64,000 bases of DNA from Subdoligranulum sp. CAG:314. GTDB lineage: Bacteria; Actinomycetota; Coriobacteriia; Coriobacteriales; Eggerthellaceae. How positions within the stretch are numbered: position 1 is the first letter of the stretch; each line of letters opens with the position of its first letter. The stretch lies in contig CAVHFS010000001.1 of NCBI GenBank assembly GCA_963635715.1, positions 46,452-110,451 of the forward strand, in the 5' to 3' direction. This document shows, piece after piece, positions 7,281 to 47,260 of this stretch. Under the pieces are notes generated by a model. The model made no database searches. It was not told the DNA's origin and saw nothing but the letters and a program-made list of their open reading frames with translations. The position numbers and the translations under genes were made by a program.

Positions 7281-7667
7281 CTACGCCTCGTCACGCAAGT
7301 AGCCGAAATCGATGCAGAAGGCGGCGTAGAGGGGCAGGCGCCGCAGTTCTCTTCCCGCGCCGTCTTCGCCGCGCGAAAAATCGTTCTCCGACAGAATGTA
7401 CGCATACGGCGCGCAAGCCTTCTCCATGAATGAGGCAAGCGTCCTCGCTCGGATGTTACGTGCGGATTTCACCTCCACAGGAACCACCTCCATGCGATCG
7501 TTCTGAAGGAGGAAATCCAGCTTCACAAAAGCCTTGCTGGCAACCCGCCTTCCCACCGCCTCGGCAGCGTACGTTTTCCCAACTCGTCGCGCCCCGCGCA
7601 GAAGCAGCGGGCGGCTGCTATCTCGCGACGCCCATGTTTCGATGATGGCTTCGATGGATCTTTTCAT
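7281..7667 (-). pseudogene. internally deleted AAA_14/DUF4143 ATPase remnant (still an open 128-codon frame)
   Basis: An N-terminal P-loop segment (LLLRGARRVGKTYAAEAV) is fused directly to the C-terminal nuclease-like end (LDFLLQNDRMEVVPVEVKSARN). The full-length paralogs at 7918 and 41344 have about 280 aa between these motifs. Confidence 0.6.
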
Positions 7668-7713
7668 TGCTGGCCCGTTCTATTCAAAACCATGCATCTC
7701 AAATGCGGGATAA

Positions 7714-7752
7714 AGTAATAAATCGTGTATTCGTAATACACGATTTATTACT
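7714..7752. repeat. 39-bp AT-rich palindrome (18-bp perfect arms, 3-nt centre)
   Basis: AGTAATAAATCGTGTATT-CGT-AATACACGATTTATTACT, read directly. It lies between the stop of the 7918 gene and the start of the 7281 remnant. Confidence 0.9.
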
Positions 7753-7917
7753 ATTTTGCGTATTTCAAATACATGAAATGGCATCGGAGCCAGAAAACCG
7801 CAGGCGGGTTGCTCGGCTGGATGAGCCGAACGAATATCGCCGCAGCCTAGGCTACGAGGCATGAGCAGTCCAGGAAATTGTCCGCACCCCCAACGCCAAC
7901 GCGCAAACGCAAATAAG

Positions 7918-9135
7918 CTAGTAGAACAAATCCACTTCGTCTTTGAGGAACTCTTCGATGCCGCATGCGCCAGATGCCGCGCCGCCGACAATGATTCGCT
8001 TTGCGCTTGGGTTCGCAGATAGAAAATCGGCCATTCCGCTTTGGCCTCTTTCATTTCCGCTTTTCACCTCGATAGCGGAAAGCGAGTCAAATCCCTTCGA
8101 AACGACGAAGTCGACCTCCTTCGTTCCCTCGCGCCACCAATAAATGCTAAGGCTCTCTTCGGGCGCCCGAGCGAGAAGTCGCGCACCCACCGCCGACTCA
8201 ACCAGACGCCCCCGCAAATCGGGTTCGCCCAAATACCTCGCCTTTTCAATTCCCGACGACGCCGTCATGAGCGACGTGTCGTACACCATAAAGCGCGGCG
8301 ACGATTTTCTCCTCTTCACCTCTTTGGCATCGTATTTCTGAATGCCACAGAGCATCCCTGCCTTATTGAGCAAATCAAGATAATGCGCAATCGTCACCGT
8401 GTTGCCAGCATCTTGCAGCTGACCAAGCATTTTGTTATACGAAAGCTCTTGCGCAGAATATGCTGCGCCAAGTCGGAAAAGAGCGCGCATAAGCGCCGGC
8501 TTGCGAACATCATCAAGGGCCAGCACGTCTTGCGAAATCGTAGGCTCAATAATGGCATCGCGAACGTACGAAACCCAGCGGATATCGTCATTCGCGAACC
8601 GAGCCGCCCCTGGATAACCGCCGTAATACAAATAGTCATCAAACGAGAAACCAAACGCCTGCGAGCATTCCGAATAGCTCCAATGAGGGGAATGGACCAG
8701 TTCGAAGCGTCCCATAAGGGAATCTTCGAGCCCCTTATGCAGCAGCAATGACGAGGAGCCGCTCAGGACAACTCGAACTGGCATATCGTTTCGACGGTCA
8801 GCGTCGTAAAGGGCCTTAACGACAAGCGACCAATGGGGGACTTTCTGAATTTCGTCCACGACGAGCACCACAGGTCGCGACCCCGACCGTGTTGCGTTTC
8901 GCGCTTGCTGCCATTCAACTTGAAGCCAGCTTTCACTCGGAACAACCGCGTCGTCTGCGCTTACGAAAAACTGTTCCATGTCGATTTTCGCCAAAGCCTG
9001 GCTAAGCATCGTGCTTTTGCCCGTCTGACGGGGCCCAACGACAACCTGCATAAGAGGGTTGTTCGTTTCAAGAATTCTATCGACGATGCCGCTCACATAG
9101 TGTCGCTCAAACATTTCAATGCCCCGAATTCTCAT
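7918..9135 (-). CDS. ATP-binding protein, AAA_14 ATPase plus DUF4143 (PD-(D/E)xK-like) domains
   Basis: Walker A GPRQTGKST, Walker B VLVVDEIQ, and C-terminal EVDFVVSKG...AIEVKSG. By alignment to the paralog MKLINRSTYMNKL, the real start may be MFERHY at 9114. The ATG at 9135 lies inside the repeat array. Confidence 0.85.
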   Translation of the reverse strand: MRIRGIEMFERHYVSGIVDRILETNNPLMQVVVGPRQTGKSTMLSQALAKIDMEQFFVSADDAVVPSESWLQVEWQQARNATRSGSRPVVLVVDEIQKVPHWSLVVKALYDADRRNDMPVRVVLSGSSSLLLHKGLEDSLMGRFELVHSPHWSYSECSQAFGFSFDDYLYYGGYPGAARFANDDIRWVSYVRDAIIEPTISQDVLALDDVRKPALMRALFRLGAAYSAQELSYNKMLGQLQDAGNTVTIAHYLDLLNKAGMLCGIQKYDAKEVKRRKSSPRFMVYDTSLMTASSGIEKARYLGEPDLRGRLVESAVGARLLARAPEESLSIYWWREGTKEVDFVVSKGFDSLSAIEVKSGNERGQSGMADFLSANPSAKRIIVGGAASGACGIEEFLKDEVDLFY

Positions 9136-9310
9136 TGTACTGAGTATTTTTACTCATTGTACTGAGTATTTTTACTCATTGTACTGAGTATTTTTACTCA
9201 TTGTACTGAGTATTTTTACTCATTGTACTGAGTATTTTTACTCATTGTACTGAGTATTTTTACTCATTGTACTGAGTATTTTTACTCAGTACAATGAGAA
9301 TTCGAGGGGC
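9121..9310. repeat. inverted repeat arms (9121-9144 and 9285-9310) framing the 22-bp array
   Basis: gccccgaattctcattgtactgag versus the reverse complement of ctcagtacaatgagaattcgaggggc; identical apart from a 2-nt indel. Each arm carries an outward-facing ATGAGAATTCG. Confidence 0.9.
9131..9284. repeat. tandem repeat, 7 perfect copies of the 22-bp unit CTCATTGTACTGAGTATTTTTA
   Basis: Counted unit by unit (9131, 9153, 9175, 9197, 9219, 9241, 9263) with no mismatches. Confidence 0.97.
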
Positions 9311-9360
9311 GATGCCTTCGCGACGGGCGTATTGTTATTTGAGAAACAGCGGACGGATGC

Positions 9361-9445
9361 GGACATTTTTGAGCGTTTTCGGACATATTCTCCCTCTTTT
9401 AGGACATTGTCCGCAAATGTCCTAAAAGAGGACCGCCGCATCCGC
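9361..9445. repeat. hairpin repeat element, copy A
   Basis: GGACAT motifs at 9361, 9381 and 9402. 15-bp stem 9393-9407 / 9417-9431 with loop TGTCCGCAA. Aligns with copies B and C. Confidence 0.85.
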
Positions 9446-9449
9446 CTTC

Positions 9450-10844
9450 CTATTTCGCCCTAACATACTTTCTTAACCGCGTCTCCCCCGTTCCCAGAAG
9501 CTCGCCAGCGTTGACCCTTCCCGATATATGCCTTCGCACCGTCCGCTCGGTCACATTCGCGATATTCGCTACCGCCGCCACGGTTACATAGCCATAAGAC
9601 TCCAACATACGTTCTATAACCCAGTCAACATCAAGCCTCTGATTTGATTCCGAACTCGATACCACGGGAACTCGCGCCTCAAACACGTCACCTTCGATAA
9701 GCTCGGGTTGGCCGCCGCCATACACCCATGAATACTTGAACAAATTCCTCGTGCCGCTCCCCAGCGATTCCGCCCGTCCAATATTGCTAAAAAACTCAGC
9801 AATAATTGGATTCTTCGGTAATGGGTTAAAGCGTCCAGGCGATAGTTCGCCGGTAAAACGGGGGCGACTCGCGTTCTCTGTACGAATATTCCCCGCATCG
9901 ATAACCATTTTGGCAGGATAGGGACTGGTGTACTCGCGATGGACGAGCGTGTTTGCGATTAGCTCACGCGAAATAACGTCTCTTAAGCTCACCGACTGCG
10001 TTCCGTCAAGGAAGAACTTGTCGGGCAGATGCTTTTGAGCGAACTCCAAAAGGACATCGTAAGCCTCGATGAGATTGGTCTTCACAACGATACGGTCATC
10101 ATAGCGATCAACATTGTCGCGCTGAACATACGCATCGGTTTTGTACGCTGGTGCAATGCTGGCAATTACATCGTCCTTGCCAAGCAAGAGCGCAGCGGCA
10201 AGCGTATACCCCTCGCGGCCCGTCTCGTAATCTTTGAGATAAAGATTTGCGCTGCGAAGCAATTCCTCATCGCTCATCTCGGACCAGGGGTGGTTGGAGC
10301 GTTTAGCCGTCGCCATTTTTCTAACACGCGCGAGCAGATCAAGGCGCAAGTCACTCAACCCAAGGTAGGGATAGACCTTCCGTTCGGAATAGTATTCCTG
10401 CTTACGGATATACATGGCCGCAAGCTGCGTGTCGGTCGCAACCTTTCTATCAGTATCGGCAATCCTGTCGTATGCCACGCCCTTCAACCTATGGACGACA
10501 GCACCGACCGTAACCCATATGCGCAAAACTAGCTTTTCCTCGAATTCCACTCTTTCGAACTCAACAGAAGGCGGAACATTGAAAAAGCTCGGATCATTCA
10601 GACGGTTTGCTATGTTACGTTCGATTTCAACAGCACGATCTGGATCAATCCCAATGACTTCGGGCTTACCCGTACTGGATTTCTCGGCATCGACAATCCC
10701 CAGAAAGATATTGCCTCCCTGTCTATTCGCGAATGAGCAAATCGTTTCGAACGTATCAATTTCTGGCACATTTCCGCATCGTTTGAATTCGACGGAAATC
10801 CCCTCCCCTTGAACGAGAATCAACTTGATGTCGTCCAGAGTCAT
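9450..10844 (-). CDS. AlbA_2 (Schlafen-like) plus HATPase_c_4 (RecG C-terminal-like) plus HTH putative DNA-binding ATP-binding protein
   Basis: N-terminal GEGISVEFKRCGN (AlbA_2 signature), SRELIANTLVHREY (HATPase_c_4 signature) and a C-terminal HTH. ATG 10844 is preceded by AAAGGTGG. Confidence 0.85.
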   Translation of the reverse strand: MTLDDIKLILVQGEGISVEFKRCGNVPEIDTFETICSFANRQGGNIFLGIVDAEKSSTGKPEVIGIDPDRAVEIERNIANRLNDPSFFNVPPSVEFERVEFEEKLVLRIWVTVGAVVHRLKGVAYDRIADTDRKVATDTQLAAMYIRKQEYYSERKVYPYLGLSDLRLDLLARVRKMATAKRSNHPWSEMSDEELLRSANLYLKDYETGREGYTLAAALLLGKDDVIASIAPAYKTDAYVQRDNVDRYDDRIVVKTNLIEAYDVLLEFAQKHLPDKFFLDGTQSVSLRDVISRELIANTLVHREYTSPYPAKMVIDAGNIRTENASRPRFTGELSPGRFNPLPKNPIIAEFFSNIGRAESLGSGTRNLFKYSWVYGGGQPELIEGDVFEARVPVVSSSESNQRLDVDWVIERMLESYGYVTVAAVANIANVTERTVRRHISGRVNAGELLGTGETRLRKYVRAK

Positions 10845-10864
10845 ACCGCCCACCTTTCAATCGA

Positions 10865-11017
10865 CCTCTTTTAGGACATTTTAGCCATTATTCGGACATA
10901 TTCGCCCTCTTTTAGGACATTGTCCGCAAATGTCCTAAAAGAGGCCGCCGCAACCGCAAAGGTGTGATTCGGCGGATTAGGAGCGAAATCACAACAGGGA
11001 AGGGGTCGATTCATCAG
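10865..11017. repeat. hairpin repeat element, copy B (long form, with an extra direct arm)
   Basis: 15-bp stem 10906-10920 / 10930-10944. A third arm CCTCTTTTAGGACATT at 10865-10880. The right-hand extension CAAAGGTGTGATTCGGCGGATTAGGAGCGAA...ATTCATCAG is shared with copy C. Confidence 0.85.
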
Positions 11018-11189
11018 TACATTCAAACAGCATCAAATGAGACAGGCGAGCGAAGACGGGAAGCCGACCGATGCCGACGAGACATCGGCTTGGGACGACG
11101 CGATCCACTACGACCGCGACAAAGACCATCACCATCCGCAACGCGAGGCATGCCACAACCCACACGACGCGAGTACGATTTTCGGTTAC

Positions 11190-11633
11190 TCAGAAACCGC
11201 AACTGTCGCCGATTTTTCGAAGGAAGTCTGCAGGCTCGATGGCTGGGACGGGGCTACCGAGGAAATCCTTCACGTTCCGGGTGACGACGAAGTCGGCGGC
11301 GAGCCTCTGAGCCGTGGCCGCCTGCACGGCGTCCTCGTAATCCCTCCAGCGCATCGACGCGGCCGCCTTGAGGTCAGAGGGCCGCAGCTCGGCGATGCCA
11401 ACCGCCATATCAATCGTGTCGATCACGGCTTCGACCAAGGCGGCGTCGAGCTCCTTGCGCATGATGTAGACGATATTCGAAATGCTCAGAGCCGACACGT
11501 GGCCAGAGACCACGCCTCCCTCGCAAAGATTGAGAACCGCCTCGGAGGCGTCGACGAACGGCTCGCGTGCGCAAAGAACGTCGAGGACGACGTTAGTATC
11601 GACCAGAATCGATGCGCTCGGCGACATGCTCAT
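11190..11633 (-). CDS. vapC: type II toxin, PIN-domain ribonuclease VapC family
   Basis: ILVDTNVVLDVL N-terminal PIN motif, about 145 aa. Overlaps the upstream antitoxin gene. Confidence 0.85.
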   Translation of the reverse strand: MSMSPSASILVDTNVVLDVLCAREPFVDASEAVLNLCEGGVVSGHVSALSISNIVYIMRKELDAALVEAVIDTIDMAVGIAELRPSDLKAAASMRWRDYEDAVQAATAQRLAADFVVTRNVKDFLGSPVPAIEPADFLRKIGDSCGF

Positions 11634-11832
11634 CCCTCGCTTCCTTATCGTCGTAATCGCGCTTCAAAATCCCGCGTAGAGAGCTCGTGAGGTATCTTGT
11701 CTTCTGCTCGGGAGAGACGAAGCGGCCGATTTCGCGGCCGCGCCTCATAACGACGATTTCCTCGCCCTCGTCGACGAGCTTCGCGTATTTTCCGAAGTTG
11801 TTCTTGAATTCCGTAGCCGATGCGACAACCAT
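11593..11832 (-). CDS. type II antitoxin, Phd/YefM family
   Basis: 79 aa, MVVASATEFKNNFGKYAKLVDEGEEIVVMRRGREIG, a typical Phd/YefM N-terminus. Directly upstream of and overlapping vapC. Confidence 0.8.
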   Translation of the reverse strand: MVVASATEFKNNFGKYAKLVDEGEEIVVMRRGREIGRFVSPEQKTRYLTSSLRGILKRDYDDKEARDEHVAERIDSGRY

Positions 11833-11867
11833 TTTCTCGCCCCCATTCCCATGCTATTAGCTAATTC

Positions 11868-11895
11868 ATTATATTATCAATTGGCTAATTTTGAA
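11868..11895 (-). promoter_or_regulatory. candidate sigma-70 promoter of phd-vapC
   Basis: Minus strand TTCAAA (11890-11895), 16 nt, TATAAT (11868-11873). ATTAGC/GCTAAT inverted repeats flank the -10, giving a possible antitoxin operator. Confidence 0.45.
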
Positions 11896-12013
11896 CATAT
11901 TCGGCCCCTTTTAGGACATTGTCCGCAAATGTCCTAAAAGGGGCCGCCGCAACCGCAAAGGTGCGATTCGACGGATTAGGAGCGAAGCCAGCAGAGAAGG
12001 GACCAATTCATCG
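11890..12013. repeat. hairpin repeat element, copy C (long form)
   Basis: 18-bp perfect stem 11901-11918 / 11928-11945 with the same 9-nt loop. Relative to A and B it has a compensatory T>C / A>G change in the stem. Confidence 0.85.
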
Positions 12014-12110
12014 GGATTCGAGGGTGCGTTAATTCGTGACGCAATGCGTCACGAATCGGGAATGGCGAACGGGGCAATCATATACAACGATAATCCAGGA
12101 ATGACCCCGA

Positions 12111-12507
12111 TCACTCGTTTGCAGTCTTCTCTGCGTACAGTTTGAACAGGTACGCGACGATTTTCTCCTCGTCGCCGACGAAATCGACGCCGTAGGCCGC
12201 CTCAACAGCGGCGTCGAGCGCCTTATGCGCGACAAGCAAATCGGCTGGATTTTATCAGGGTCATAGAGTTTAGCGAGCATGGTGCCGAGATGCGTCTCCA
12301 GACATCGAGCACGCCTTGAGCACGTGCTTCAACGGTCGCACACGGCCCATCGGAGGGAGCAGGCCAAACGAAGTTGTCGTAGACGACACCGCCCGAGTAG
12401 CGATAGTCGCTTTTCAAGCGTCCTGCCACCGTACGCATGCATGCGCTGTGAAACTGCAAATAGAGAACGCCGAAGTGGTACAAGGTAGCGTCAGGAATCA
12501 GGAACAC
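12111..12507 (-). pseudogene. remnant of the C-terminus of an MmeI-family (type IIL/IIG) restriction-modification methyltransferase; frameshifted and 5'-truncated
   Basis: GRLKSDYRYSGGVVYDNFVWP is the family signature. After a frameshift my translation reads PADLLVAHKALDAAVEAAYGVDFVGDEEKIVAYLFKLYAEKTANE*. No upstream roughly 800 aa of the enzyme is present. Confidence 0.7.
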
Positions 12508-12611
12508 TAAGTCACTGCAGAAGGCTCCAGAGTCGATAAACGCAAGTTATCCAATTGCTCACAAGCAGTTTAACACCACTTATTACAGAGTTTCCGACCC
12601 CTCTCGGGGAA

Positions 12612-13533
12612 TGGATTGGCTATACCTATTTGGACGATTCCGGGAGAACCAATCCTGCCTTCCTGAACTCAACCGGGGTCATGTAGCCCAGCGTCGAGTG
12701 GATCCTGAAATTGTTGCACCAGTGCACGTAGTCCGCCAGCTTGGCCCGCAGCTCGCGGGTCGTGCCGAACGCCTCGCGGTAGACGAACTCCGCCTTCAGT
12801 ATCTTGTTCGTCGACTCGTCGACGGCGTTGTCGTACGGGCAGCCCTTCCTCGACAGCGACCTCTCGATGCCGAAGGCGTCGAGCATCTCGCCGATCTTGG
12901 CGTTGCCGAACTCGCTTCCGCGGATGCCGTATGGAAGACCTGGATGTCGGACAGGGGGAACTCGACCGTCGCGAACGCCGCCCTCACCAGTTCGGCGTCC
13001 TTGCGCGGCCCCGCCGAGTGCCCGACGATCTCGCGGTTGTGCAGGTCGACGAGCAGGCAGACGTAGTTCCATCCGCCGCCGACGCGCACGTAGGTCAGGT
13101 CGCTGCACACGCAGGCGCGCGGCGCACGCCCGCCGAAGCGCCTGCCCACCACGTTGGGCAGCTCGGCCTCGTTGGGCCCGCTGGGGTGGCATTTGAACTT
13201 CTTGCGTCCGTAGGCGCTTTAAAACGTCGACCTCCATGCGCAGCCGCCTGTTCTCGCGCTCCAGCTCGATGATCCGGTTCTGCTCGGGCGTGCGGTTGTC
13301 GGCCGCGCGCGGCGAGCCCGACGCGTTTATCGACTTGACCCACCTGTCGACCGTGCTCTTGCACAGGTCGTACTCGCGCACCACGTCGGGCTTTGGCTTC
13401 CCGGCGTTTATGAGCTCGACTATCTGCCGCTTGAACTCGTCGGTGAAATGCCTCGGGTACTTCGGGTCGGCCATGGGCCTCTCCTCGATCTCGCGACCCT
13501 CTCGAAAGTGTCCAATTCAGTATAGCCAGTCCA
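12612..13533 (-). mobile_element. degenerate IS3-family insertion sequence (922 bp)
   Basis: Terminal inverted repeats TGGATTGGCTATACCTATTTGGAC (12612-) and the reverse complement TGGACTGGCTATACTGAATTGGAC (-13533). GAA on both flanks is a possible 3-bp target duplication. Encodes OrfA and a truncated rve integrase core. Confidence 0.8.
12626..13474 (-). pseudogene. IS3-family transposase orfAB, internally deleted and frameshifted
   Basis: OrfA HTH is MADPKYPRHFTDEFKRQIVELINAGK...LERENRRLRMEVDVLK. The rve core is split over two frames (DLTYVRVGGGWNYVCLLVDLHNREIVGHS... / ...GSEFGNAKIGEMLDAFGIERSLSRKGCPYDNA). OrfB lacks about 80-90 N-terminal aa. Confidence 0.75.
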
Positions 13534-13658
13534 GAAGCGGGGAATCGGCGAAGCGAGCCCGCGCCACATGGGTGCGGGCATCGGCCGCCAGGCCGATATC
13601 GCATGGCGCAGCCATACCTGGGCGCAAGCCCAGAATGAAACACCGGGCGCATACCGAA

Positions 13659-13710
13659 GCTATGACAAGCTCTGACAAAGCTCTGACAAGCTCTGACAAA
13701 GCTATGACAT
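13659..13710. repeat. short tandem repeat, five 10/11-bp units GCT(A/C)TGACAA(A)
   Basis: GCTATGACAA GCTCTGACAAA GCTCTGACAA GCTCTGACAAA GCTATGACA, read directly. It lies just 3' of the AlbA_2 gene that stops at 13716. Confidence 0.8.
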
Positions 13711-13715
13711 CATGC

Positions 13716-14804
13716 CTATGCCAGCGTATAGAACTGGTTGGGATCGGTGGCGGAGGATCCGTGCCACTCGAACATCCCGCCGTCTCCGGAGAGGCCCTTG
13801 AGAATGCGGCTCGCGGTGCGCTGCCCGCGACCGATATGCTCGGCGAGCTCCGCCGCCGTGACCTTGCCATTGGCGAACGCGAGCCGCACGGCGGCGAGCT
13901 CGTACTCGCCCAGCGCGGCCATGGATTCCTGCGAAATCCTGTCCTCCAGCGCCTCGCAGCGCCCGACCGTCCTCGCCACGATATTGTTCTCGAGCGTGAG
14001 CTTGACCTTCGCGTTGTCGGGCTCCGAGTACGTCGGGGCATTCAGGAGCATTCCTTGCATCTCGCTGTAGATGCGCTGCACGCCCTCGTTGAGCTCGCGG
14101 ACCCACCCGAATTCGGCGAGCGTGCGGGCGATGCGCGGGTTTCGCGAGTAGCGCGTCTCGCGCATGTTGTCGAGCGTCACGATGTTGGGCAGCGCGCCCG
14201 CGACCGTCAGCCTGCCGTCGCGCATAAAGCGCCGGCTCCTGAGCACCTGCTCGTCGGAAGCCTCGGTTCCGAACAATTCCTTGTAGCGATCGAGCACCTC
14301 GCGATCGACGTCGTCGATCGAGGAGTCCAACACGAGTTCGTCCTCGAAGACGCGCTGCCCCTTGTCGTATTCGAGCGCTGAGACCTGTTCGCGCGTCAGC
14401 TTGACGCTCTTGTCGTTCTGGCGCAGAAACACCTCGCCGTCGCTCGCCCGCGATATCACATGGTTGGGCGAGGCCTCGACGTCCAATACGAGCACGATGT
14501 CGCTTTCGCCTTTGGAATTCACCACGGGGATGCGCTCTTTATGCACAATGGGGCTCGGGGAGCATGTGGCGATCGGGGCACGTTCGAAATCCTCGACGTC
14601 GCGCGCGCCGTTGCGCGCGAAACCCGTCACCTCGCCGTCATCCTCGATGCCGATGACGAGTTTGCCGCCAGAGGCGTTCGCGAACGCGCTTATGTGCTTG
14701 GCGATTTCCTTGTCGTCTTTGCGGGCGCTTTTGCGGTCGAAGTACTGGCTTTCCTTCGCCGCAGATAGGAGGGCGATCTCGTTCGCCGCCACGGGCTGTT
14801 GCAT
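13716..14804 (-). CDS. AlbA_2 (Schlafen-like) domain protein with a C-terminal HTH; apparently lacks the HATPase_c_4 core
   Basis: Start MQQPVAANE is preceded by AAGGAG. AlbA_2 signature is ESQYFDRKSARKD...FANASGGKLVIGIEDDG. The sequence jumps from LTVAGAL to PNIVTLDNM..RYSRNPRIA without the RELxANAxVHRDY block found in the two paralogs. Confidence 0.75.
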   Translation of the reverse strand: MQQPVAANEIALLSAAKESQYFDRKSARKDDKEIAKHISAFANASGGKLVIGIEDDGEVTGFARNGARDVEDFERAPIATCSPSPIVHKERIPVVNSKGESDIVLVLDVEASPNHVISRASDGEVFLRQNDKSVKLTREQVSALEYDKGQRVFEDELVLDSSIDDVDREVLDRYKELFGTEASDEQVLRSRRFMRDGRLTVAGALPNIVTLDNMRETRYSRNPRIARTLAEFGWVRELNEGVQRIYSEMQGMLLNAPTYSEPDNAKVKLTLENNIVARTVGRCEALEDRISQESMAALGEYELAAVRLAFANGKVTAAELAEHIGRGQRTASRILKGLSGDGGMFEWHGSSATDPNQFYTLA

Positions 14805-14899
14805 TTGCGGCTCCTTCGTCATTCGGTGCATACCAGTGTAAACCAACGCCCGCCGACACCGACCCAAGACGCCGAATCCCGAGGCGATGCGCGAAATCG

Positions 14900-14923
14900 C
14901 CAGCCCCGCCGAAGCGGGGCTGG
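14900..14923 (-). terminator. terminator-like hairpin after the YraN-like ORF
   Basis: CCAGCCCCGC-CGAA-GCGGGGCTGG, a perfect 10-bp stem. On the minus strand the loop is UUCG and the trailing sequence CGATTTCG is only a weak U tract. Confidence 0.55.
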
Positions 14924-14933
14924 GTGGCTGGCG

Positions 14934-15314
14934 CTACTCGATCGAGCCGTACAGGTTGACGATGTGCTTCACGAAGCCCTTGAGGTTGGGCATCGCCTTG
15001 ACCTGCACCGAATCGAAGCGGACCCGGGCGTCCTGGCCGTCGTAGCGGGACAGCCAGCGGTAGGCGCATATCTCGGCGAGCCCGCGGTCCTTGCGCGGCG
15101 GCTCGAACCCGTCGCCGTCGCCTTCGTCGAGCGACACGTCGACGAAGACCAGGCACCCGCCGTCGGCGGCCACCACGCCGCGCCTGCTGGGCATCCAGTC
15201 GCCGTCGAAGAGCTCGTAGCCCTTGCGCTTGAGCATCTCGTGCGCAAGCCCGTACGCGAGGTCCTCCCACGCCGGGTTGTCCGCGCCCATATCCATGAGT
15301 TCCATCGCTTCCAT
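14934..15314 (-). CDS. YraN/UPF0102-like (PD-(D/E)xK fold) protein with divergent catalytic motif
   Basis: Start MEAMELMDMG is preceded by GAGGAGG. The pattern KGYELFDGDW...GGCLVFVDVS...VRFDSVQV parallels YraN GY.il.rN.r...GEIDii..dg..lvFVEVK...RFDvv.v, but GEID and EVK are not conserved. Confidence 0.5.
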   Translation of the reverse strand: MEAMELMDMGADNPAWEDLAYGLAHEMLKRKGYELFDGDWMPSRRGVVAADGGCLVFVDVSLDEGDGDGFEPPRKDRGLAEICAYRWLSRYDGQDARVRFDSVQVKAMPNLKGFVKHIVNLYGSIE

Positions 15315-15389
15315 CGTTGCCTCCTCGGGCTCGGGGCGATTATCTGGATATGGCCAGTCAGGAAGCTCCACGGGAATGTCGGATACCAG

Positions 15390-15545
15390 CTCACCCGCAG
15401 CCTTCTCGGCGTACAACCTGAACAGGCGCGCGACAACCTTCTCCTCGTCGCAGTCGAAATCGACGCCATAGGCGACCTCGAGTGCGGCATCGAGCGCCCT
15501 ATGGACGTTCATTGAATCAGGGAGCAGGAAATCGTTTGCCAGGGT
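15390..15545 (-). pseudogene. second MmeI-family methyltransferase C-terminal tail remnant
   Basis: HRALDAALEVAYGVDFDCDEEKVVARLFRLYAEKAAGE parallels the tail at 12111-12240 but is a different sequence. The upstream reading is broken by stops. It runs in frame into the YraN-like ORF. Confidence 0.5.
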
Positions 15546-38999: not shown

Positions 39000-40937
39000 C
39001 TATTTCATGAGACTCGCGATTTCGTTCGCAAAGGCGACCGGGTCTTCAAGCGGCATGCCTTCAACGAGCAACGCCTGGTTGTAGAGCAGGCTCGCGTAGG
39101 TCTTCACCTTGTCGGCATCGCCCGCTTCCTGGGCGGCCTTCAGCGTGGCGAACACCGGATGCGCGGCGTTTATCTCGAGCACGCGCTCGCTCTTGGGGGC
39201 TTCGCCGCCCATATCGGGCATCTGCGAAAGGATTTTTTCCATCTCGAGCGACATCGATCCTTCGGCCGTAAGGCACGCGGGAGCGGCATCGGCGCTGGTG
39301 AGCTTCGTAGAAACCGCCACCTTCGAAACCGATTCGCCAAGCGCCTCTTTCATGGCGCCGAACAGGTCTTCGCTTTGCTTCGCGGCGTCTTCGGCGGCCT
39401 TCTTCTCGTCTTCGCTCGCGAGGTCCAAATCGCCCGACGCGACATTCTTGAGTTCCTTGGCGGCCTCGCCTTCGCCCCAGCCCATCATGGATTGAAGCGT
39501 GAACTCATCAACGTCTTGCGTGCACAGCAGTACGTCATAGCCGCGATCGAGGACCGATTTCACCACGGGCAGCTTGGAAAGGCGGTCGGTCGTCTCGCCC
39601 GTGCCAGCGGCATAATAGATGGCCTTCTGGTCGGTCGGCATGGCGGCGGCGTATTCCTCGAACGTCACCATCTTGTTCTGCTTGGCCGAATAGAACAGCA
39701 GCAAATCGGCCAGCAGGCTCTTCTGCATGCCGTAGCTTTGGTAGATGCCGAACTTCAACCCACGGCCGAACTGCTCGAAGAACTTCTCATAATCCTCGCG
39801 ATGGTTGTCGCGCATCTTCTCGAGCTCGCTCTTAATCTTCTTCTCGAGCTTGTTGGCGATGGCGCGAAGCTGGCTGTTGTGCTGCAGCGTTTCGCGCGAG
39901 ATGTTCAGCTGCAAATCGGCCGAGTCCACCACGCCGCGCACGAAGTTGAAGCAGTCGGGCAGAAGCTCTTCGCACTTATCCATGATGAGCACGTTGGAGC
40001 TGTAGAGCGCCAGACCCTTCTTGTAGTCTTTGCTGTACAGGTCGAAGGGTGCGCGGCTGGGAATGAACAGCAGCGCATCGTAGGTGATGGCGCCCTCCGC
40101 GTGAACCTTGATGGTGCGCGCGGGGTCGGTGTAGTCGTGGAAGTTCGACTTATAGAACTCGTTGTATTCCTCTTCGGTCACGTCGGATTTGCCGCGCTTC
40201 CAAATGGGAACCATCGAATTGATGGTCGCGCGCTCGGTGTAGTGCTCGTATTCCGGCTTGTAGTCGTCGCCCGCATCTTCCGGCTTTGGCTTTTCGCGCG
40301 TCTTGTCGCAATCCATGGTGATGGGGTAGCGCACGTAATTGCTGTATTTCTTGATAAGGTTCTTCAGGCCCCACTCAGACAGGTAGGTGTCGTATTTCTC
40401 TTCGTCGGTGTCGTCTTTGAGCACGAGCACGATGTCGGTGCCGTTCGCGTCGCGCTCCGCCGCAGAAACCGTGTAGCCCTCAACGCCGTCGCTTTTCCAC
40501 TCCCAAGCCTCTTCGCTACCGAAGGCGCGGCTCACGACGCGCACCTCCTTGGCCACCATGAAGGCCGAATAGAAGCCCACGCCGAACTGGCCGATGATGT
40601 CCACGTCGTCGCCTTGGGCCTTGTCGTTTTCGGTTTTGAACTCAAGGGAGCCGGAATGCGCAATGGTGCCGAGGTTTTTCTCGAGCTCGTCTTTGGTCAT
40701 GCCGATGCCCGAATCGCTTACCGTAACAGTGCGGGCGTCTTTATCGAAGGAAACGTGAATGGCCAGCTCATCTTTGGAAAGCTTCACGTCGGAATCGGTG
40801 AGGCTCTTGAAATAGAGTTTGTCCACCGCGTCGGAGGCGTTGGAGATGAGCTCGCGCAGGAAAATCTCTTTGTTCGTGTAAATCGAGTTGATCATAAGGT
40901 CGAGCAGTTTTTTGCTCTCTGTCTTGAACTTCTTCAT
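39000..40937 (-). CDS. htpG: molecular chaperone HtpG (Hsp90)
   Basis: IFLRELISNASDAVDKLYF, IGQFGVGFYSAFMVA. 645 aa. Confidence 0.95.
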   Translation of the reverse strand: MKKFKTESKKLLDLMINSIYTNKEIFLRELISNASDAVDKLYFKSLTDSDVKLSKDELAIHVSFDKDARTVTVSDSGIGMTKDELEKNLGTIAHSGSLEFKTENDKAQGDDVDIIGQFGVGFYSAFMVAKEVRVVSRAFGSEEAWEWKSDGVEGYTVSAAERDANGTDIVLVLKDDTDEEKYDTYLSEWGLKNLIKKYSNYVRYPITMDCDKTREKPKPEDAGDDYKPEYEHYTERATINSMVPIWKRGKSDVTEEEYNEFYKSNFHDYTDPARTIKVHAEGAITYDALLFIPSRAPFDLYSKDYKKGLALYSSNVLIMDKCEELLPDCFNFVRGVVDSADLQLNISRETLQHNSQLRAIANKLEKKIKSELEKMRDNHREDYEKFFEQFGRGLKFGIYQSYGMQKSLLADLLLFYSAKQNKMVTFEEYAAAMPTDQKAIYYAAGTGETTDRLSKLPVVKSVLDRGYDVLLCTQDVDEFTLQSMMGWGEGEAAKELKNVASGDLDLASEDEKKAAEDAAKQSEDLFGAMKEALGESVSKVAVSTKLTSADAAPACLTAEGSMSLEMEKILSQMPDMGGEAPKSERVLEINAAHPVFATLKAAQEAGDADKVKTYASLLYNQALLVEGMPLEDPVAFANEIASLMK

Positions 40938-41343: not shown

Positions 41344-42555
41344 ATGAAGCTCATAAACCGATCAACCTATATGAACAAACTCGCAAGCGCGATGAACACA
41401 CCCGACATTAAAGTGATCACCGGCATCAGGCGCTGCGGCAAATCGAAGCTGCTCGAAGCGTTCGCCGACCACATACGCAAGTCCAACCCAACGGCGAACA
41501 TCATACGCATCAATTTCAACCTACTCGAATTCGAGCCGCTCATGGAGTACCGCGCGTTGCACAGCTATATCGAAGGGCATTTCGTCGAGGGCTGCGACAA
41601 CGTAATCATAATTGACGAAGTGCAAATGTGCGAAGGCTTCGAGAAAGCAATCAACAGCCTGCACGCGTCGGAGAAATACGATATCTATGTAACTGGCTCG
41701 AACGCCTTCTTGCTTTCGAACGACCTGTCGACCCTGTTCACGGGCAGAACCTTCGAAGTGGAGGTGTTTCCGTTCTCGCTCGCCGAATTCGCGCAATACC
41801 ACGAAATCTCATCGCCCGACGAGGCCTTGGATCGTTACCTGCGGGAGGGCGGAATGCCAGGTTCCTACTTATATCCCGACGAGGGGGCTCGATACGCTTA
41901 CATCTCTGACGTGCTTAGCACGCTCATCCTGCGCGACGTCAAACAGAAATACCGCATACGCAACGTCGAACAGCTCAAAAGAGCGTGCGAGTTCCTCATG
42001 GACAATATCGGCAACATCTCCTCGCTGAAGAACATGGCAGCAACGCTCTCTCAGGCAGGCCTGAGCATCAGCGATAAGACCTTGGCGGCATACATCGACC
42101 ATCTCTGCAACGCATTCGCCTTCTACCAAGTGCGCCGATACGACGTCGCAGGGAAGAAATATCTCTCAACGGGAGACAAATATTACCTGGCCGACCACTC
42201 ATTCCGCTATGCGCAGCTCGGTACCCGCAAGCTCGACTTCGGGCACGTCTACGAAAACATGGTGGCCATCGAGCTCCTGCGGCGCGGGTGGGAGGTATAC
42301 GTTGGCACCCTCTACCAGAAGGAAGTCGACTTCGTTGCCGTCAGGCGGGAACGACGCGTCTATATCCAGGTGAGCGACGACATCTCGCAAGAGGCCACCT
42401 TCGAACGCGAGATTGCACCCCTGCGAAAAATCCGCGACGCATACCCCAAGGCAATCATCGCAAAAACCGGCCACGAAACAACCGACTGGGACGGCATCAA
42501 GGTCATTGACCTGGGACGCTGGCTCATGGGGCAGACTAATGAGATAAGCGATTAA
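41344..42555 (+). CDS. ATP-binding protein, AAA_14 ATPase plus DUF4143
   Basis: Walker A GIRRCGKSKL, Walker B VIIIDEVQ, C-terminal EVDFVAVRRERRVYIQVSD. Paralog of the 7918-9135 gene. Confidence 0.85.
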   Translation: MKLINRSTYMNKLASAMNTPDIKVITGIRRCGKSKLLEAFADHIRKSNPTANIIRINFNLLEFEPLMEYRALHSYIEGHFVEGCDNVIIIDEVQMCEGFEKAINSLHASEKYDIYVTGSNAFLLSNDLSTLFTGRTFEVEVFPFSLAEFAQYHEISSPDEALDRYLREGGMPGSYLYPDEGARYAYISDVLSTLILRDVKQKYRIRNVEQLKRACEFLMDNIGNISSLKNMAATLSQAGLSISDKTLAAYIDHLCNAFAFYQVRRYDVAGKKYLSTGDKYYLADHSFRYAQLGTRKLDFGHVYENMVAIELLRRGWEVYVGTLYQKEVDFVAVRRERRVYIQVSDDISQEATFEREIAPLRKIRDAYPKAIIAKTGHETTDWDGIKVIDLGRWLMGQTNEISD

Positions 42556-43752: not shown

Positions 43753-43835
43753 AAAAAGCCGCCTACTCCGACAAAATTTAGACAACACATCTTCCCACAC
43801 GATATGACCAGTAGAAATTGTGGCATGATTTCTTC

Positions 43836-44894
43836 ATGGCCTTATTCGACACCGACATACCAACGGCAATTGACTACGCCCTCATTTCGGCGCCCGTTCG
43901 CGTCGATGACGAATTGCCCGATACCGACCTCACGGTTTCTCGAGCGCTAAGCAAAATTCCCAGCGGCGACAGAGAAAACTACCGCGCACTTTACCGATGG
44001 TTCGAGGAAAACTCGGGCACCGTTGGCTCACGCTTTCTGGGGCAGCGACTGCCCGGCGTTGGCTTTCCTCATTCAGCGCAACGAGGAATACATACTCCTT
44101 CGAAAAGAAAATACGCCGCAACTGTAACGCTCACGAAGAACAGCTCCTATGTCGACGGGGCTTTCGCCGACCTCGGCGATGGAACGTGGGTGCTTCACTA
44201 TTGCGAGCATCGCAATAACGCAAACGGAGCAAAAGTCTCCACGTGGAACCAGCCGCTCATCAATTGCCTCATTGACGGGGTTCCTGTTGGCGTATTCATG
44301 CAAGAAGGGAACTCGTCTCAAAGCTACCTACGCGCCCTCGCCTTCGTCGAGGAATATGACCCAGATTCCGGCGTTTTCATTCTTCACGGACCAGTCTCTC
44401 CCGAAACCGAGCACATCTTCAAAGCGCACGAATCTTCTCAGGCGCCAACGGAGCAAGACGAGCTTCCCTCCGTCGATGAAATCCGAAAAGACACTCGGCA
44501 AACAATACTGAGAACGAACATCGTTCGGAAGGGACAACGGCGCTTTCGTTCAGACCTACTCCAGGCATACGACGGGCAATGCGCCATAACGGGATATGAC
44601 GTCAACCCCGTCTTACAAGCGGCTCACATTCTCGAATACCGAGGAACGCCTTCAAACAACGTCAAAAACGGCATCGTCCTTCGCGCCGACATCCATATCC
44701 TGTTCGACCGCGCCCTCCTCGGAATCGACCCGTCGGACTTCAAGGTCGTCCTATCGAAGAGCATCGCTGATTCCCGATACGAAGACATCAACGGCAAAAG
44801 TATCCAACTACCCAAGGATAAGAACCTTTGGCCAAGCGAAGATTATGTCGCCGCCAGTTTCGCTCGATTCCGGCAGATTCAATCGTCTCTTTAG
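43836..44894 (+). CDS. HNH (HNH_2 type) endonuclease with an N-terminal SRA/PUA-like reader-type domain; candidate modification-dependent (type IV) restriction enzyme
   Basis: C-terminus CAITGYDVNPVLQAAHILEYRGTPSNNVKNGIVLRADIHILFDRALLGID is the PF13391-style HNH. The N-terminal RGIHTP...YVDGAFADLGDGTWVLHYCEH...GVPVGVFM pattern resembles the SRA/ScoMcrA-type fold; this rests on pattern recall, not a search. Confidence 0.7.
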   Translation: MALFDTDIPTAIDYALISAPVRVDDELPDTDLTVSRALSKIPSGDRENYRALYRWFEENSGTVGSRFLGQRLPGVGFPHSAQRGIHTPSKRKYAATVTLTKNSSYVDGAFADLGDGTWVLHYCEHRNNANGAKVSTWNQPLINCLIDGVPVGVFMQEGNSSQSYLRALAFVEEYDPDSGVFILHGPVSPETEHIFKAHESSQAPTEQDELPSVDEIRKDTRQTILRTNIVRKGQRRFRSDLLQAYDGQCAITGYDVNPVLQAAHILEYRGTPSNNVKNGIVLRADIHILFDRALLGIDPSDFKVVLSKSIADSRYEDINGKSIQLPKDKNLWPSEDYVAASFARFRQIQSSL

Positions 44895-45336: not shown

Positions 45337-45447
45337 GGCGAATCCCCTTTCTTCGCAATCGTTGGATTCGTAGTCTACGGCACCTCGAACAATGCCCCAC
45401 GCGCAATGGACAACTCATCTGCCAACGGCTGGTTCAGCCAAAGCGCG

Positions 45448-45594
45448 TTTTACTTGCTCGTCATTTGCTTTTTTTGGGCCGAAAAGCGGCTATTTTTGGG
45501 CGCTTTCGCGCATCGCACACGTTTGACCTGGGTTTTCGTAAATCGGCTTTACTTGCTTCTTACTTGCTCGTCATTTGCTTCTTACTTGCTTTTT
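45448..45594. repeat. direct repeat DR1 (about 147 bp) with an internal 11-bp periodic A(C/T)TTGCT motif
   Basis: Aligns over its whole length with 47116-47260; I count about ten differences by eye. It contains TTACTTGCTCGTCATTTGCTT twice. Confidence 0.9.
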
Positions 45595-45615
45595 CACGCT
45601 CGAACCCACTACAAT
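45586..45615 (+). promoter_or_regulatory. candidate promoter of the AlbA_2 gene at 45639
   Basis: TTGCTT (the last 11-bp unit of DR1), 18 nt, TACAAT (45610-45615), then AAGGAGG 7 nt before the ATG. Confidence 0.5.
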
Positions 45616-45638
45616 CGCTTCGAACAAGGAGGTTTCCC

Positions 45639-47084
45639 ATGCCCGATTTCAAACTCCTCATCGACAATCTGTGCAATTTGCCGAGCGAAACCGAATACGT
45701 CGAATTCAAGGAAAGCTACTCGGAACCCGACAAGGAGGGGCGAGACATTTGCGCCCTGGCGAATTCGGCCGCGCTCCACGACGCGCGATATGCCTACAAA
45801 GTTTGGGGAATCACCGACGACACGCACGAGGTCGTCGGAACGAGCTTCAACCCGCACACCGCCAAAAAGGGCAATCAGGACCTCGAAATATACCTGCGCA
45901 CCATGCTCAGCTCCAACGCGAATTTCGAATTCAACGAAGCCGAAGTGTACGGAAAGCACGTAGTGGTTCTCAAAATCTCACCAGCCACCCATAGCCCCGT
46001 ACGCTACCAAAGCATCGCCTACATTAGGTCGGGCAGCAGCACACAAAAACTCGAGCAAGGCTCGCAGCGAGAAGCCGACCTGTGGCGCAAAACCGAGCAC
46101 TCGGTTTTCGAATCTCAGATCGCCTTGGACGGGCTCGAGCTCGAAAACGCACTTCAAACGCTCAATTACGACGCCTATTTCAAAATGCTGGGACAAATTA
46201 CGCCGTCGAATTCCGAGGCGATCGCCCATGTACTCGAGGTAGACAAAATTATCGAGCGCCACGCCGACGGCTATGCGATCACCAACCTCGGCGCCATTCT
46301 GCTTGCCGAAAACCTTCAAGATTTCCCTGCGCTTAGAAGAAAGGCGATTCGCGCCATTAAATACACTGGTGACGGCCGCATTTCCATCGAAAAGAATATG
46401 GTCTTCGAAGAAGGCTACGCGACCGCATTTGAGCAGGCATTTCTCTATCTAACAGCCGCCATGCCCTCCGCCGAGCCCATTGAAGGTGCGCTGCGCAAAT
46501 CAAGGCAGGAATTCCCTGGTATCGCCGTTCGCGAGTTGCTCGCCAACGCCATCGTTCATCAGGATTTCCAAGCCACGGGTTCAAGCCCCCTCGTCGAAAT
46601 CTTCGACAGCCGAATTGAGTTCACGAACCCAGGAGTGCCCTTAATCGACCCCAAGAAAATCGTAAACGACCCCCCGCGATCGAGAAACGAGGCGCTCGCA
46701 GCGCTCATGCGACGCATGGGCATCTGCGAGGAAGCGGGAAGCGGCTGGGACAAAATCGTGACCTCGTGCGAAGAGATGCAGCTTCCGGCGCCGATTATCG
46801 AAACGGCGAACGAAACAACCCGCGTAACCCTTTACAGCCATCGAGAATTCAAGGCACTCACTCCCGATGAACGTGCCGATGCGTGCTATTGGCACGTATG
46901 CGTTCGCTACGCTTCGCGAGATTACGCAAGCAACCAATCGCTCAGGGAGCGCTTCGGTCTGAAAGACTCGAATTCGGCGCAGGTGTCGCGACTTATGAAG
47001 TCGTGCATAGACAAAGGGCTCATCAAACTGTCCGACCCCGAAGCTTCGCCAAAGTATCGGCGCTACATTCCAGCCTGGGCATAG
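45639..47084 (+). CDS. AlbA_2 (Schlafen-like) plus HATPase_c_4 plus HTH putative DNA-binding ATP-binding protein
   Basis: MPDFKLLIDNLCNLPSETEYVEFKESYS (AlbA_2), VRELLANAIVHQDFQ...IEFTNPG, RSRNEALAALMRRMGICEEAGSGWDKI. The start follows AAGGAGG. Confidence 0.85.
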   Translation: MPDFKLLIDNLCNLPSETEYVEFKESYSEPDKEGRDICALANSAALHDARYAYKVWGITDDTHEVVGTSFNPHTAKKGNQDLEIYLRTMLSSNANFEFNEAEVYGKHVVVLKISPATHSPVRYQSIAYIRSGSSTQKLEQGSQREADLWRKTEHSVFESQIALDGLELENALQTLNYDAYFKMLGQITPSNSEAIAHVLEVDKIIERHADGYAITNLGAILLAENLQDFPALRRKAIRAIKYTGDGRISIEKNMVFEEGYATAFEQAFLYLTAAMPSAEPIEGALRKSRQEFPGIAVRELLANAIVHQDFQATGSSPLVEIFDSRIEFTNPGVPLIDPKKIVNDPPRSRNEALAALMRRMGICEEAGSGWDKIVTSCEEMQLPAPIIETANETTRVTLYSHREFKALTPDERADACYWHVCVRYASRDYASNQSLRERFGLKDSNSAQVSRLMKSCIDKGLIKLSDPEASPKYRRYIPAWA

Positions 47085-47115
47085 GCCTTAAGCTGAGGGG
47101 TTTACGCTTCCTGGC

Positions 47116-47260
47116 TTTTACTTGCTCGTCATTTGCTTTTTCGCGCCGAAAAGCGGCTATTTTTGGGCGCTTTCGCGCATCGCACGCGTTTGACCTGCGT
47201 TTTTGCAAATCTGCTTTACTTGCTTCTTACTTGCTCGTCATTTGCTTCTTACTTGCTTTT
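47116..47260. repeat. direct repeat DR2, partner of DR1
   Basis: Same order of sub-repeats as DR1. It begins about 30 nt after the stop of the AlbA_2 gene. Confidence 0.9.

Follow-up and report, generated by a model that had tools for sequence, protein, structure and literature searches.

The 64,000-nt stretch of DNA analyzed here (positions 46,452 to 110,451 of contig CAVHFS010000001.1, assembly GCA_963635715.1, labeled Subdoligranulum sp. CAG:314), referred to below as the window, carries three genes with the Schlafen-type SLFN_AlbA_2 (hereafter AlbA_2) domain, three genes of the AAA_14/DUF4143 family, and four families of short repeats next to them. An earlier note on this DNA had listed the three AlbA_2 genes, each beside a different phased repeat family, and both statements held: Pfam scored the domain at 49.1, 71.0, and 64.0 bits in genes #1, #2, and #3, respectively, against a cut-off of 25.3, and all the repeat families are in place. 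Each of the four repeat families recurs beside orthologs of its gene elsewhere, every subfamily keeping its own repeat sequence at one fixed position across other genera and phyla as well as on plasmids and phages. The repeats are therefore not local accidents and, judging from these sequence comparisons, are inherited with their genes across genera and neighborhoods.

Schlafen-type genes and their repeats

The AlbA_2 genes and the repeats adjoining them are the following:

9361..9445, minus strand: R module copy 1, the palindrome GGACAT-N9-ATGTCC plus two ATGTCC half-sites at 20- to 21-bp spacing
9450..10853, minus strand: AlbA_2 gene #1 (SLFN_AlbA_2, 1e-12), likely start ATG at 10844
10865..10987, minus strand: R module copy 2, over the promoter region of AlbA_2 gene #1
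11890..11986, minus strand: R module copy 3, absent from the earlier note, 93% identical to copy 2 over 97 nt
13657..13709, minus strand: array of five TGTCAGAGC/TGTCATAGC units at 10- to 11-bp spacing, beginning 7 nt past the stop codon of AlbA_2 gene #2
13716..14867, minus strand: AlbA_2 gene #2 (SLFN_AlbA_2, 2e-19), likely start ATG at 14822
45448..45594, plus strand: direct repeat 1 (DR1), two 11-bp iterons (ACTTGCT/ATTTGCT), an 87-nt spacer, and four more iterons
45639..47084, plus strand: AlbA_2 gene #3 (SLFN_AlbA_2, 2e-17; HATPase_c_4, 3e-20, 72 bits, full domain)
47116..47261, plus strand: direct repeat 2 (DR2), 94.5% identical to DR1, beginning 31 nt past the stop codon of AlbA_2 gene #3

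All three proteins exceed the Pfam gathering threshold for SLFN_AlbA_2 (25.3 bits), as members of the prokaryotic Schlafen (pSlfn) group do, and all three contain the Ex4(E/D)xK motif defined by Taboada et al. (bioRxiv 10.1101/2025.07.24.666596), in the form of ETEYVEFK in #3, EGISVEFK in #1, and ESQYFDRK in #2; it is the predicted catalytic motif of these paralogs. The AlphaFold model of AlbA_2 #3, with a mean predicted local distance difference test (pLDDT) score of 90.1, has a Schlafen-like N-terminal domain with E17-x4-E22-x-K24. In Foldseek searches, this domain matched the nuclease domains of SLFN11/13/14, the middle part of the model matched the histidine-kinase (CA) and PDK GHKL domains, and residues ∼409 to 478 matched MarR-type winged helices, including those of DNA-bound ZitR and of AdcR (Foldseek probability, 0.99). 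The full-length model resembled the uncharacterized structure 3lmm, which was the only match in a sequence search of the PDB. AlbA_2 #1 gives weaker matches to HATPase_c_4 (0.008, 16.6 bits) and HTH_DeoR (0.004), both under the Pfam cut-offs; its GHKL domain is diverged and aligns through the RELIANTLVHREY motif. The C-terminal winged helix is thus seen in the model of #3 and matched weakly by HTH_DeoR in #1, and #2 aligns over the same region. Together, the domain matches and the model place the three genes in the predicted “pSlfn-HisKinase-HTH” class.

In AlbA_2 #2, Pfam detects a partial HATPase_c_4 domain (profile positions 18 to 87 of 89). Its 488-aa ortholog in locus L231 (∼75% identical) has the complete domain, and alignment of the two reveals that exactly 119 residues are missing in frame from #2, between ..TVAGAL and ..SPGAL; the lost stretch includes EGLVNAVTHRDY, and the deletion takes out the GHKL N-box region. 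The earlier suggestion that this gene had lost its HATPase_c_4 core was right in substance, although the C-terminal 70 positions of the domain are still recognizable. The array that follows the gene contains GCTMTGACA five times at 10- to 11-bp spacing (13659-13709). The L231 ortholog is followed, 14 nt past its stop codon, by six TGTCGCA units at 11-bp spacing, and the one in L199 by two such units.

DR1 and DR2 bracket AlbA_2 gene #3, the gene downstream of DR2 is convergent, and TTACTTGCT occurs eight times, every time inside these two 146-bp direct repeats. The last iteron of DR1 provides a −35-like TTGCTT, 18 nt before a TACAAT hexamer. A role of the downstream module as a duplicated promoter for co-oriented cargo was rejected as a general explanation, since the next gene is convergent in Collinsella and in most family #3 loci; moreover, the −10 hexamer is located outside DR1 and is absent from DR2. 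At all 13 genome loci with 51 to 87% identity to the protein, the gene is flanked by direct repeats of 53 to 210 bp. The two copies are 88 to 100% identical within a locus but only 22 to 86% identical when loci with different gene sequences are compared, which points to concerted evolution. L068 DR1 and L067 DR2 share 98% identity, and conversion or recombination between DR copies appears to have occurred in these closely related genomes. A recent horizontal transfer between L067 and L068 was considered and rejected: the loci are ∼96% identical throughout and are evidence of DR conversion only.

Homologs of AlbA_2 #3 at 40 to 50% identity come from conjugative plasmids, Burkholderia phage Musica, Bacteroidales- and Firmicutes-type gut contigs, and IMG/VR viral contigs (41 to 48%). 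They lack the upstream copy, and the 3′ module was found in every one examined. It consists of 2 to 5 iterons at 11-bp spacing (core AACTTGC, TTTGAT, or TTGCTTGA), a spacer, and 1 to 4 more iterons, and begins 0 to 45 nt past the stop codon in most of these homologs (∼70 to 85 nt in two). Distances between the two clusters in family #3 are 76, 87, 98, 107 to 110, 119 to 121, and 130 bp, near multiples of ∼10.9 bp. Of 30 family #3 genes, 22 had a perfect direct repeat of 10 nt or more in the 200 nt that follow the stop codon, versus 7 of 60 other open reading frames (ORFs) of the same loci (Fisher P = 7e-9, for loci that are not fully independent phylogenetically). Many of the more distant AlbA_2 homologs have long 10- to 12-bp arrays directly past the stop codon, such as GATAAATGATAG in 11.6 copies, AACTAGGGAGAA in 14.8 copies, and AAACAACTGC in 4.4 copies; one is a 12-bp unit repeated more than 10 times. 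No 3′ module was seen in the sequence examined of a 36%-identical homolog from a Streptococcus satellite phage. In the Streptococcus satellite phage Javan114 (L177, 2974-4440), a full-length, 36%-identical AlbA_2/HATPase_c_4 homolog lies beside the integrase, an arrangement found in three Streptococcus satellite phages; master repressors occupy this position in such elements. Distant homologs (32 to 35%) from high-GC viral contigs (L248-L251 and L255) are without iterons and share a conserved TTGTTTATTTAAGGCTTTCCCC motif ∼70 to 90 nt past the stop codon.

The R module of AlbA_2 #1 is a stretch of ∼60 to 97 nt around the palindrome CCTCTTTTAGGACAT-N9-ATGTCCTAAAAGAGG. GGACAT sites are found at 9361, 9381, and 9402 (plus) and 9417 (minus) and again at 10874, 10894, and 10915 (plus) and 10930 (minus), with the half-sites at 20- to 21-bp spacing. 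The three copies in the window precede three successive minus-strand units, AAA_14 #1, AlbA_2 #1, and phd-vapC. Copy 1 begins ∼5 nt past the AlbA_2 #1 stop codon and lies upstream of AAA_14 #1; the last ATGTCC of copy 2 shares bases with a −10-like hexamer, TAAAAT, that is located ∼35 nt ahead of the AlbA_2 #1 start; copy 3 is upstream of the phd-vapC promoter, with a promoter-like site at 11895-11868. Orthologs of AlbA_2 #1 were identified in six Collinsella species bins and one Ellagibacter bin (85 to 86% identity), in a Prevotella-binned contig (71%), and in Coriobacteriales bins (L013 and L014; 67%). The same unit occurs in different neighborhoods in different genera. Nearly all of these genes have an R module ∼30 to 100 nt upstream of the start and another one, in the same orientation, 20 to 30 nt past the stop codon. 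No R module was found in the 330 nt examined of the L014 upstream flank, and the 219-bp flanking repeat of that locus is a different sequence. The arms of the R palindrome change in a compensatory manner, from TTTTAGG/CCTAAAA to TTTCCGG/CCGGAAA, and both copies in one locus share the variant. In the Collinsella R-AlbA_2-R loci, the next downstream gene is convergent. Tandem arrays of a hairpin repeat with a ∼80-bp period (ATCTGTAACA, ∼25 nt, TGTTACAGAT) are present on both sides of R-AlbA_2-R in Collinsella loci (L008, 3324-3555 and 5586-5735; L010; L011, 5603-5982). An empty-site comparison for the Collinsella unit with L198 was dropped, as there was no nucleotide homology.

AAA_14/DUF4143 genes and the genomic setting

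The AAA_14/DUF4143 genes correspond to the PDC-S01 family of PADLOC and are accompanied by two further elements:

7281..7667, minus strand: AAA_14/DUF4143 remnant (128 aa), with a weak Pfam AAA_14 match at N-terminal residues 18 to 59 only
7691..7775, no strand assigned: AT-rich palindrome from the inverted-repeat search, with 41-nt arms, a perfect 18-bp core, and a terminator-like match at 7714-7752
7918..9135, minus strand: AAA_14/DUF4143 gene #1 (PDC-S01; Pfam AAA_14, 4e-21; DUF4143, 2e-28)
9131..9305, no strand assigned: array of 22-bp units, each with an 18-bp palindrome TACTCA-N6-TGAGTA, directly upstream of AAA_14 #1
41338/41344..42555, plus strand: AAA_14/DUF4143 gene #2 (PDC-S01; AAA_14, 2e-29; DUF4143, 5e-20)

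Pfam and PADLOC agree with the earlier count of two intact genes and one remnant. AAA_14 #1 matches PADLOC profile PDLC04791 over residues 8 to 402 (E = 1.7e-164), and AAA_14 #2 matches PDLC04787 over residues 2 to 399 (E = 4.1e-145), near full length in both cases; the two proteins are 24% identical. The true start of AAA_14 #1 is probably the ATG at 9114, given that its orthologs begin with MFE... The model of this protein (mean pLDDT, 90.9; Foldseek top matches, Orc1/Cdc6 and ORC subunits) consists of an ORC/Cdc6-like AAA+ domain, a helical, winged-helix-like segment, and an alpha-beta-beta-beta-alpha-beta PD-(D/E)XK-like tail with EVDF..EVK. The assignment of the helical segment is suggested by its helix-helix-helix-strand-strand pattern, as read from the secondary structure of the model. 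Together with the Pfam matches, the model provides the P-loop AAA+ ATPase and the PD-(D/E)XK-type domain that characterize PDC-S01; DUF4143 was included in a survey of the PD-(D/E)XK superfamily (PMC3424549).

The remnant matches the PDC-S01 profiles of PADLOC at its two ends only, residues 1 to 55 corresponding to positions 1 to 54 and residues 48 to 120 to positions 367 to 433 of 439, and retains the Walker A motif (GARRVGKT) and the C-terminal ExK tail. It is therefore an in-frame internal deletion, as had been proposed. The palindrome at 7691..7775 separates the stop codon of AAA_14 #1 from the beginning of the remnant and could serve as an operator or as a bidirectional terminator.

The 22-bp array, which the earlier note had placed next to AAA_14 #1, is indeed present at 9131-9305. 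It includes 7.2 perfect copies (9131-9288), where zero are expected by chance, and one terminal copy with an inverted center, and each unit includes a TACAAT. Orthologs of AAA_14 #1 that are 79 to 89% identical, on three unrelated contigs, have 2 to 3 copies of the same unit directly before the start codon; the 7 copies in the window thus look like an expansion from the usual 2 to 3 in this assembly. The other assembly, GCA_963638055.1 (L001), shows ∼3.2 copies, so the copy number in this genome is variable or uncertain. L001 is a scaffolded assembly of the same genome that spans positions 3640 to 15555 of the window, and for that reason it was not counted as an independent genome; its N gaps fall inside AlbA_2 #1 and #2 (window positions 10294-10324 and 14319), and the gene calls differ between the assemblies. 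No phased repeats were found beside AAA_14 #2.

The window belongs to a Slackia species (Eggerthellaceae), since its HtpG (39000-40937, minus strand) shares 93% identity with the protein of an uncultured Slackia sp. and 91% with its counterpart in Slackia isoflavoniconvertens. The guanine-plus-cytosine (GC) fraction is ∼0.60 to 0.65 over most of the window and drops to 0.48 to 0.57 at 5 to 13 kb and to 0.51 to 0.58 at 41 to 48 kb. The earlier statement that all six genes lie in the AT-richer patches fails for AlbA_2 #2, whose DNA has a normal GC fraction of 0.63 to 0.65. A tRNA-Met gene (16232-16309, minus strand) borders the first patch, a position typical of island insertion. No direct repeat of its 3′ end was found in positions 1 to 16150, so that a tRNA-Met-derived attachment site of an island was rejected. 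A scan of the window with Rfam returned only this tRNA and nothing in the repeat regions, and NCBIfam gave no useful names.

The order of the genes coding for HtpG, CAAX-NUDIX, and glyoxalase is conserved in S. isoflavoniconvertens and a related Slackia bin. In these two, an Fe-ADH gene stands at the site of AAA_14 #2, and neither the DR-AlbA_2-DR unit nor a solo DR is present. Between the NUDIX and glyoxalase genes, the window has a 358-aa HNH_2 gene (43818-44894, plus strand), and the sister genomes have a restriction-modification pair consisting of a C5 DNA methylase and a MutH/Sau3AI-like gene (L091, 4334-7186); this site looks like a defense hot spot. The AlbA_2 and AAA_14 genes of the window are accordingly accessory at their sites, where sister Slackia genomes carry other genes or nothing. 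The paralogs inside the window are only 18 to 24% identical to each other, which indicates independent acquisitions, and a recent local duplication was rejected on the same grounds. The two families co-occur elsewhere too, as shown by a Coriobacteriia-type contig (L172, 171-4194) in which an AlbA_2/HATPase_c_4/HTH gene lies beside two tandem AAA_14/DUF4143 genes.

In addition, the first patch contains an MmeI target-recognition-domain fragment, a decayed insertion sequence (IS)-like ORF, and one toxin-antitoxin pair:

11190..11832, minus strand: phd-vapC toxin-antitoxin operon (PIN_3 toxin, PhdYeFM antitoxin), between two R modules

The C-terminal fragment with the MmeI-type target-recognition domain (12223-12507, minus strand) looks decayed, as does the 282-aa IS3-like ORF (12626-13474, minus strand), a fusion of HTH_Tnp_1 with the end of an rve domain. 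Both of them, together with AlbA_2 #2, are enclosed by a 107-nt direct repeat (12121-12227 and 15397-15503; 81% identical), the first copy of which lies inside a short ORF resembling a truncated paralog of the 192-aa ORF at 14934-15512 (minus strand). Three 71-nt repeats at 4587-5068 (spacing, ∼200 to 210 nt; 68 to 70% identical) are coding and belong to an LRR_5/Flg_new surface-protein gene (4320-6038, minus strand).

Possible functions of the linked repeats

With moderate confidence, the repeats are predicted to be cognate sites for the winged helix of each protein, through which a potentially toxic Schlafen RNase would be autoregulated or tethered. According to this scenario, two variable defense-type islands, one of them bordering tRNA-Met, have gathered three unrelated Schlafen-type genes and three unrelated AAA+/PD-(D/E)XK genes, and one gene of each family has decayed by in-frame deletion. 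Each Schlafen-type gene forms a compact unit with its own helically phased iteron array. The likely ancestral position of the array, to judge from its distribution across phyla, is 0 to 45 nt past the stop codon, and in Coriobacteriia lineages it is duplicated upstream, over the promoter. The C-terminal winged helix is expected to bind the iterons as an oligomer. Binding to the upstream copy would lead to repression and hence to negative autoregulation; the 3′ copy, with its two in-phase iteron clusters ∼100 bp apart serving as a platform, could tether the protein or bridge DNA and, in Coriobacteriia, loop to the upstream copy. As an outcome, a potentially toxic tRNase-type effector would be kept low and controlled wherever the unit lands. 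The overlap of the upstream copy with the promoter in two AlbA_2 subfamilies fits such self-regulation. The 22-bp-phased palindromic units could likewise act as operators in the promoter of AAA_14 #1, analogous to the AlbA_2 iterons. Both AlbA_2 and AAA_14/DUF4143 are candidate or proven defense families (PMC12988326; bioRxiv 10.1101/2025.07.24.666596), and an anti-phage role is predicted for the window genes.

Several points weigh against this interpretation. Across most of family #3, the module is present only 3′ of the gene, where it cannot act as a conventional repressor site for the promoter of that gene; autoregulation thus accounts for the Coriobacteriia arrangement alone. Some R modules stand solo, one of them separating a glycosyltransferase gene from polA in L004 and others being found in many metagenome loci, and R modules also precede unrelated genes (phd-vapC and AAA_14) and adjoin other AlbA_2 subfamilies, so that the GGACAT modules may have a life of their own. 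The Schlafens shown to defend, DUF262-Slfn and the Ig-like fusion RorSlfn5, have other architectures (bioRxiv 10.1101/2025.07.24.666596), and in the single reported test, the PDC-S01 representative was not among the candidates protecting against T4, T5, or T7 (PMC12881386). Published clones extended only 100 to 150 bp upstream and would thus have been devoid of the 3′ module. Besides, the compared loci are partly related phylogenetically.

Alternatively, the repeats could be the recombination boundaries of mobile module-gene-module cassettes, whose loss leaves solo modules behind, in the manner of solo long terminal repeats or attC-like junctions. The direct orientation and concerted evolution of the flanking copies would agree with this view, as would the near identity of L068 DR1 and L067 DR2, which implies conversion or recombination between copies, the solo R modules such as the one in L004, the presence of one unit in different neighborhoods of different genera, and the variable cargo between R modules (the window has phd-vapC there, whereas L214 and L231 have ∼700 nt of unknown sequence). 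However, the units carry no recombinase or transposase of their own, the nearest one being the decayed IS3-like remnant, and no target-site duplications were seen at the unit ends in the flanks of the window, L065, and L066. The module edges are helically phased iteron clusters, which suits a protein-binding platform, the upstream copy is missing from most of the family, and sister Slackia genomes have no solo DR at the site. Since the repeats are fixed immediately 3′ of the gene, a function is favored over mobility scars, and the cassette explanation is considered unlikely. The earlier hypothesis of self-regulated, individually mobile modules is partly supported by the genome comparisons, with mobility supported only indirectly.

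A more speculative and rather improbable extension of the cognate-site interpretation is that the 3′ iteron module acts as a DNA “safety catch,” or antidote: the protein would be parked inactive on its own site, and loss, titration, or degradation of the site would free the active RNase. Release could be triggered when the plasmid or island is lost, when a phage attacks the DNA of the host, or when incoming DNA competes. If so, the unit would be a one-gene addiction or abortive-infection module in which the antitoxin is a DNA site, and this would explain why site and gene stay tightly linked in different phyla and on plasmids and phages, why the two clusters are helically phased, and why the duplicated copies evolve in concert.

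It is very doubtful that the 3′ arrays act as RNA, be it as 3′ untranslated region structures, as terminators, or as sites for the Schlafen/AlbA domain on its own mRNA. Being located 0 to 45 nt past the stop codon, they are probably transcribed, the GGACAT module holds a hairpin with a 15-bp stem and compensatory changes in its arms, and Schlafen domains bind and cut RNA (PMC12680541). Nevertheless, the 10- to 12-bp repeats of families #2 and #3, read by eye and not folded, have no evident self-complementarity, the hairpin is not followed by a T tract, Rfam is empty in these regions, the module is also found upstream of the promoter in Coriobacteriia, and a cluster spacing of ∼10.9 bp per turn is a property of double-stranded DNA. 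Finally, the notion of generic Coriobacteriia intergenic repeats or portable promoters with no gene-specific link, both being merely common in variable regions, is hardly tenable: it would account for the dispersed and often solo R modules and the unrelated 80-bp hairpin arrays of the Collinsella loci, but the subfamily-specific repeats keep a fixed position in other genera, phyla, plasmids, and phages, the control ORFs mostly lack them (7 of 60 versus 22 of 30), and conservation with the genes largely refutes it for families #2 and #3 and the 22-bp unit.

The cognate-site interpretation has some general implications. The HisKinase(-HTH) fusions are the most frequent bacterial Schlafen architectures, and PDC-S01 ranks among the most frequent candidate defense genes (∼6,000 pSlfn and ∼40,000 PDC-S01 genes in all); the linked site would be a concrete candidate ligand of the winged helix and points to control through DNA, in the form of autoregulation, tethering, or sensing of the DNA state. 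Linked iterons also provide a simple genomic signature that would predict protein-site pairs across thousands of genes. The DR-flanked units of Coriobacteriia illustrate how potentially toxic single-gene modules can bring their own control elements into any genomic context.

Comparison with known systems

The window AlbA_2 genes share with the HisKinase-HTH class of pSlfn (COG2865) the three-domain architecture of SLFN_AlbA_2, HATPase_c_4, and a winged helix-turn-helix (wHTH), with a full HATPase_c_4 in #3, a match below the cut-off in #1, and a partly deleted domain in #2, as well as the Ex4(E/D)xK motif and the context of defense islands and mobile elements. HisKinase fusions are the commonest bacterial Schlafen architectures, with 34.0% HisKinase and 19.2% HisKinase-HTH, and of the two protective Schlafens, RorSlfn5 alone was shown to cleave tRNA (bioRxiv 10.1101/2025.07.24.666596). 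Links between the HisKinase-HTH class and BREX loci are widespread (PMC12839542), and an association with defense genes holds for AlbA_2 domains as a whole (PMC12680541). PDC-S01, a COG1373-type ATPase with a PD-(D/E)XK nuclease to which both intact AAA_14 genes of the window show near full-length matches, is very common, was found by genomic embedding, and is unproven as a defense system (PMC12988326). A gene-linked iteron module or flanking repeats are not mentioned in the searched text of the pSlfn papers (bioRxiv 10.1101/2025.07.24.666596; PMC12839542), nor is a 22-bp palindromic array before one subfamily mentioned in the PDC-S01 literature (PMC12988326; PMC12881386). The literature on DUF4143, COG2865, AlbA_2/HATPase_c_4, and Schlafen plus iterons likewise yielded no description of gene-linked repeats. 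The proteins are thus of known kinds, and the linked iteron module is one for which no published description was found.

Two other classes of elements were considered and rejected. No integrase was detected among the ORFs scanned in either patch, and the modules, on reading, lack the GTTRRRY core; integron-like cassettes with an attC core were rejected on these grounds. Type II toxin-antitoxin systems were rejected because the AlbA_2 and AAA_14 units are single genes, the only adjacent toxin-antitoxin pair being phd-vapC at 11190-11832.

In terms of layout only, the AlbA_2 units resemble some plasmid maintenance loci. Replicons of the P1/F type have the order iterons, rep, iterons, with autorepression and handcuffing, and the par2 locus of pB171 has the order parC1, parAB, parC2. 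The gene of a DNA-binding protein there lies between clusters of direct repeats that are helically phased, with the upstream cluster over the promoter, and the AlbA_2 units are likewise flanked by their own direct-repeat clusters. Unlike those systems, the AlbA_2 proteins are not Rep or ParB according to Pfam, the units are chromosomal single genes, and no origin features were seen.

BrxR and CapW are WYL/wHTH regulators that bind repeats upstream of defense operons. The likeness consists in a wHTH protein within a defense island, with putative cognate repeats at promoters; on Proteobacterial plasmids, the iteron module separates the AlbA_2 gene from the co-oriented gene that follows. In contrast to BrxR and CapW, however, the regulator-like protein here itself bears the nuclease effector, its conserved site lies 3′ of its own gene, and the downstream neighbor is often convergent.

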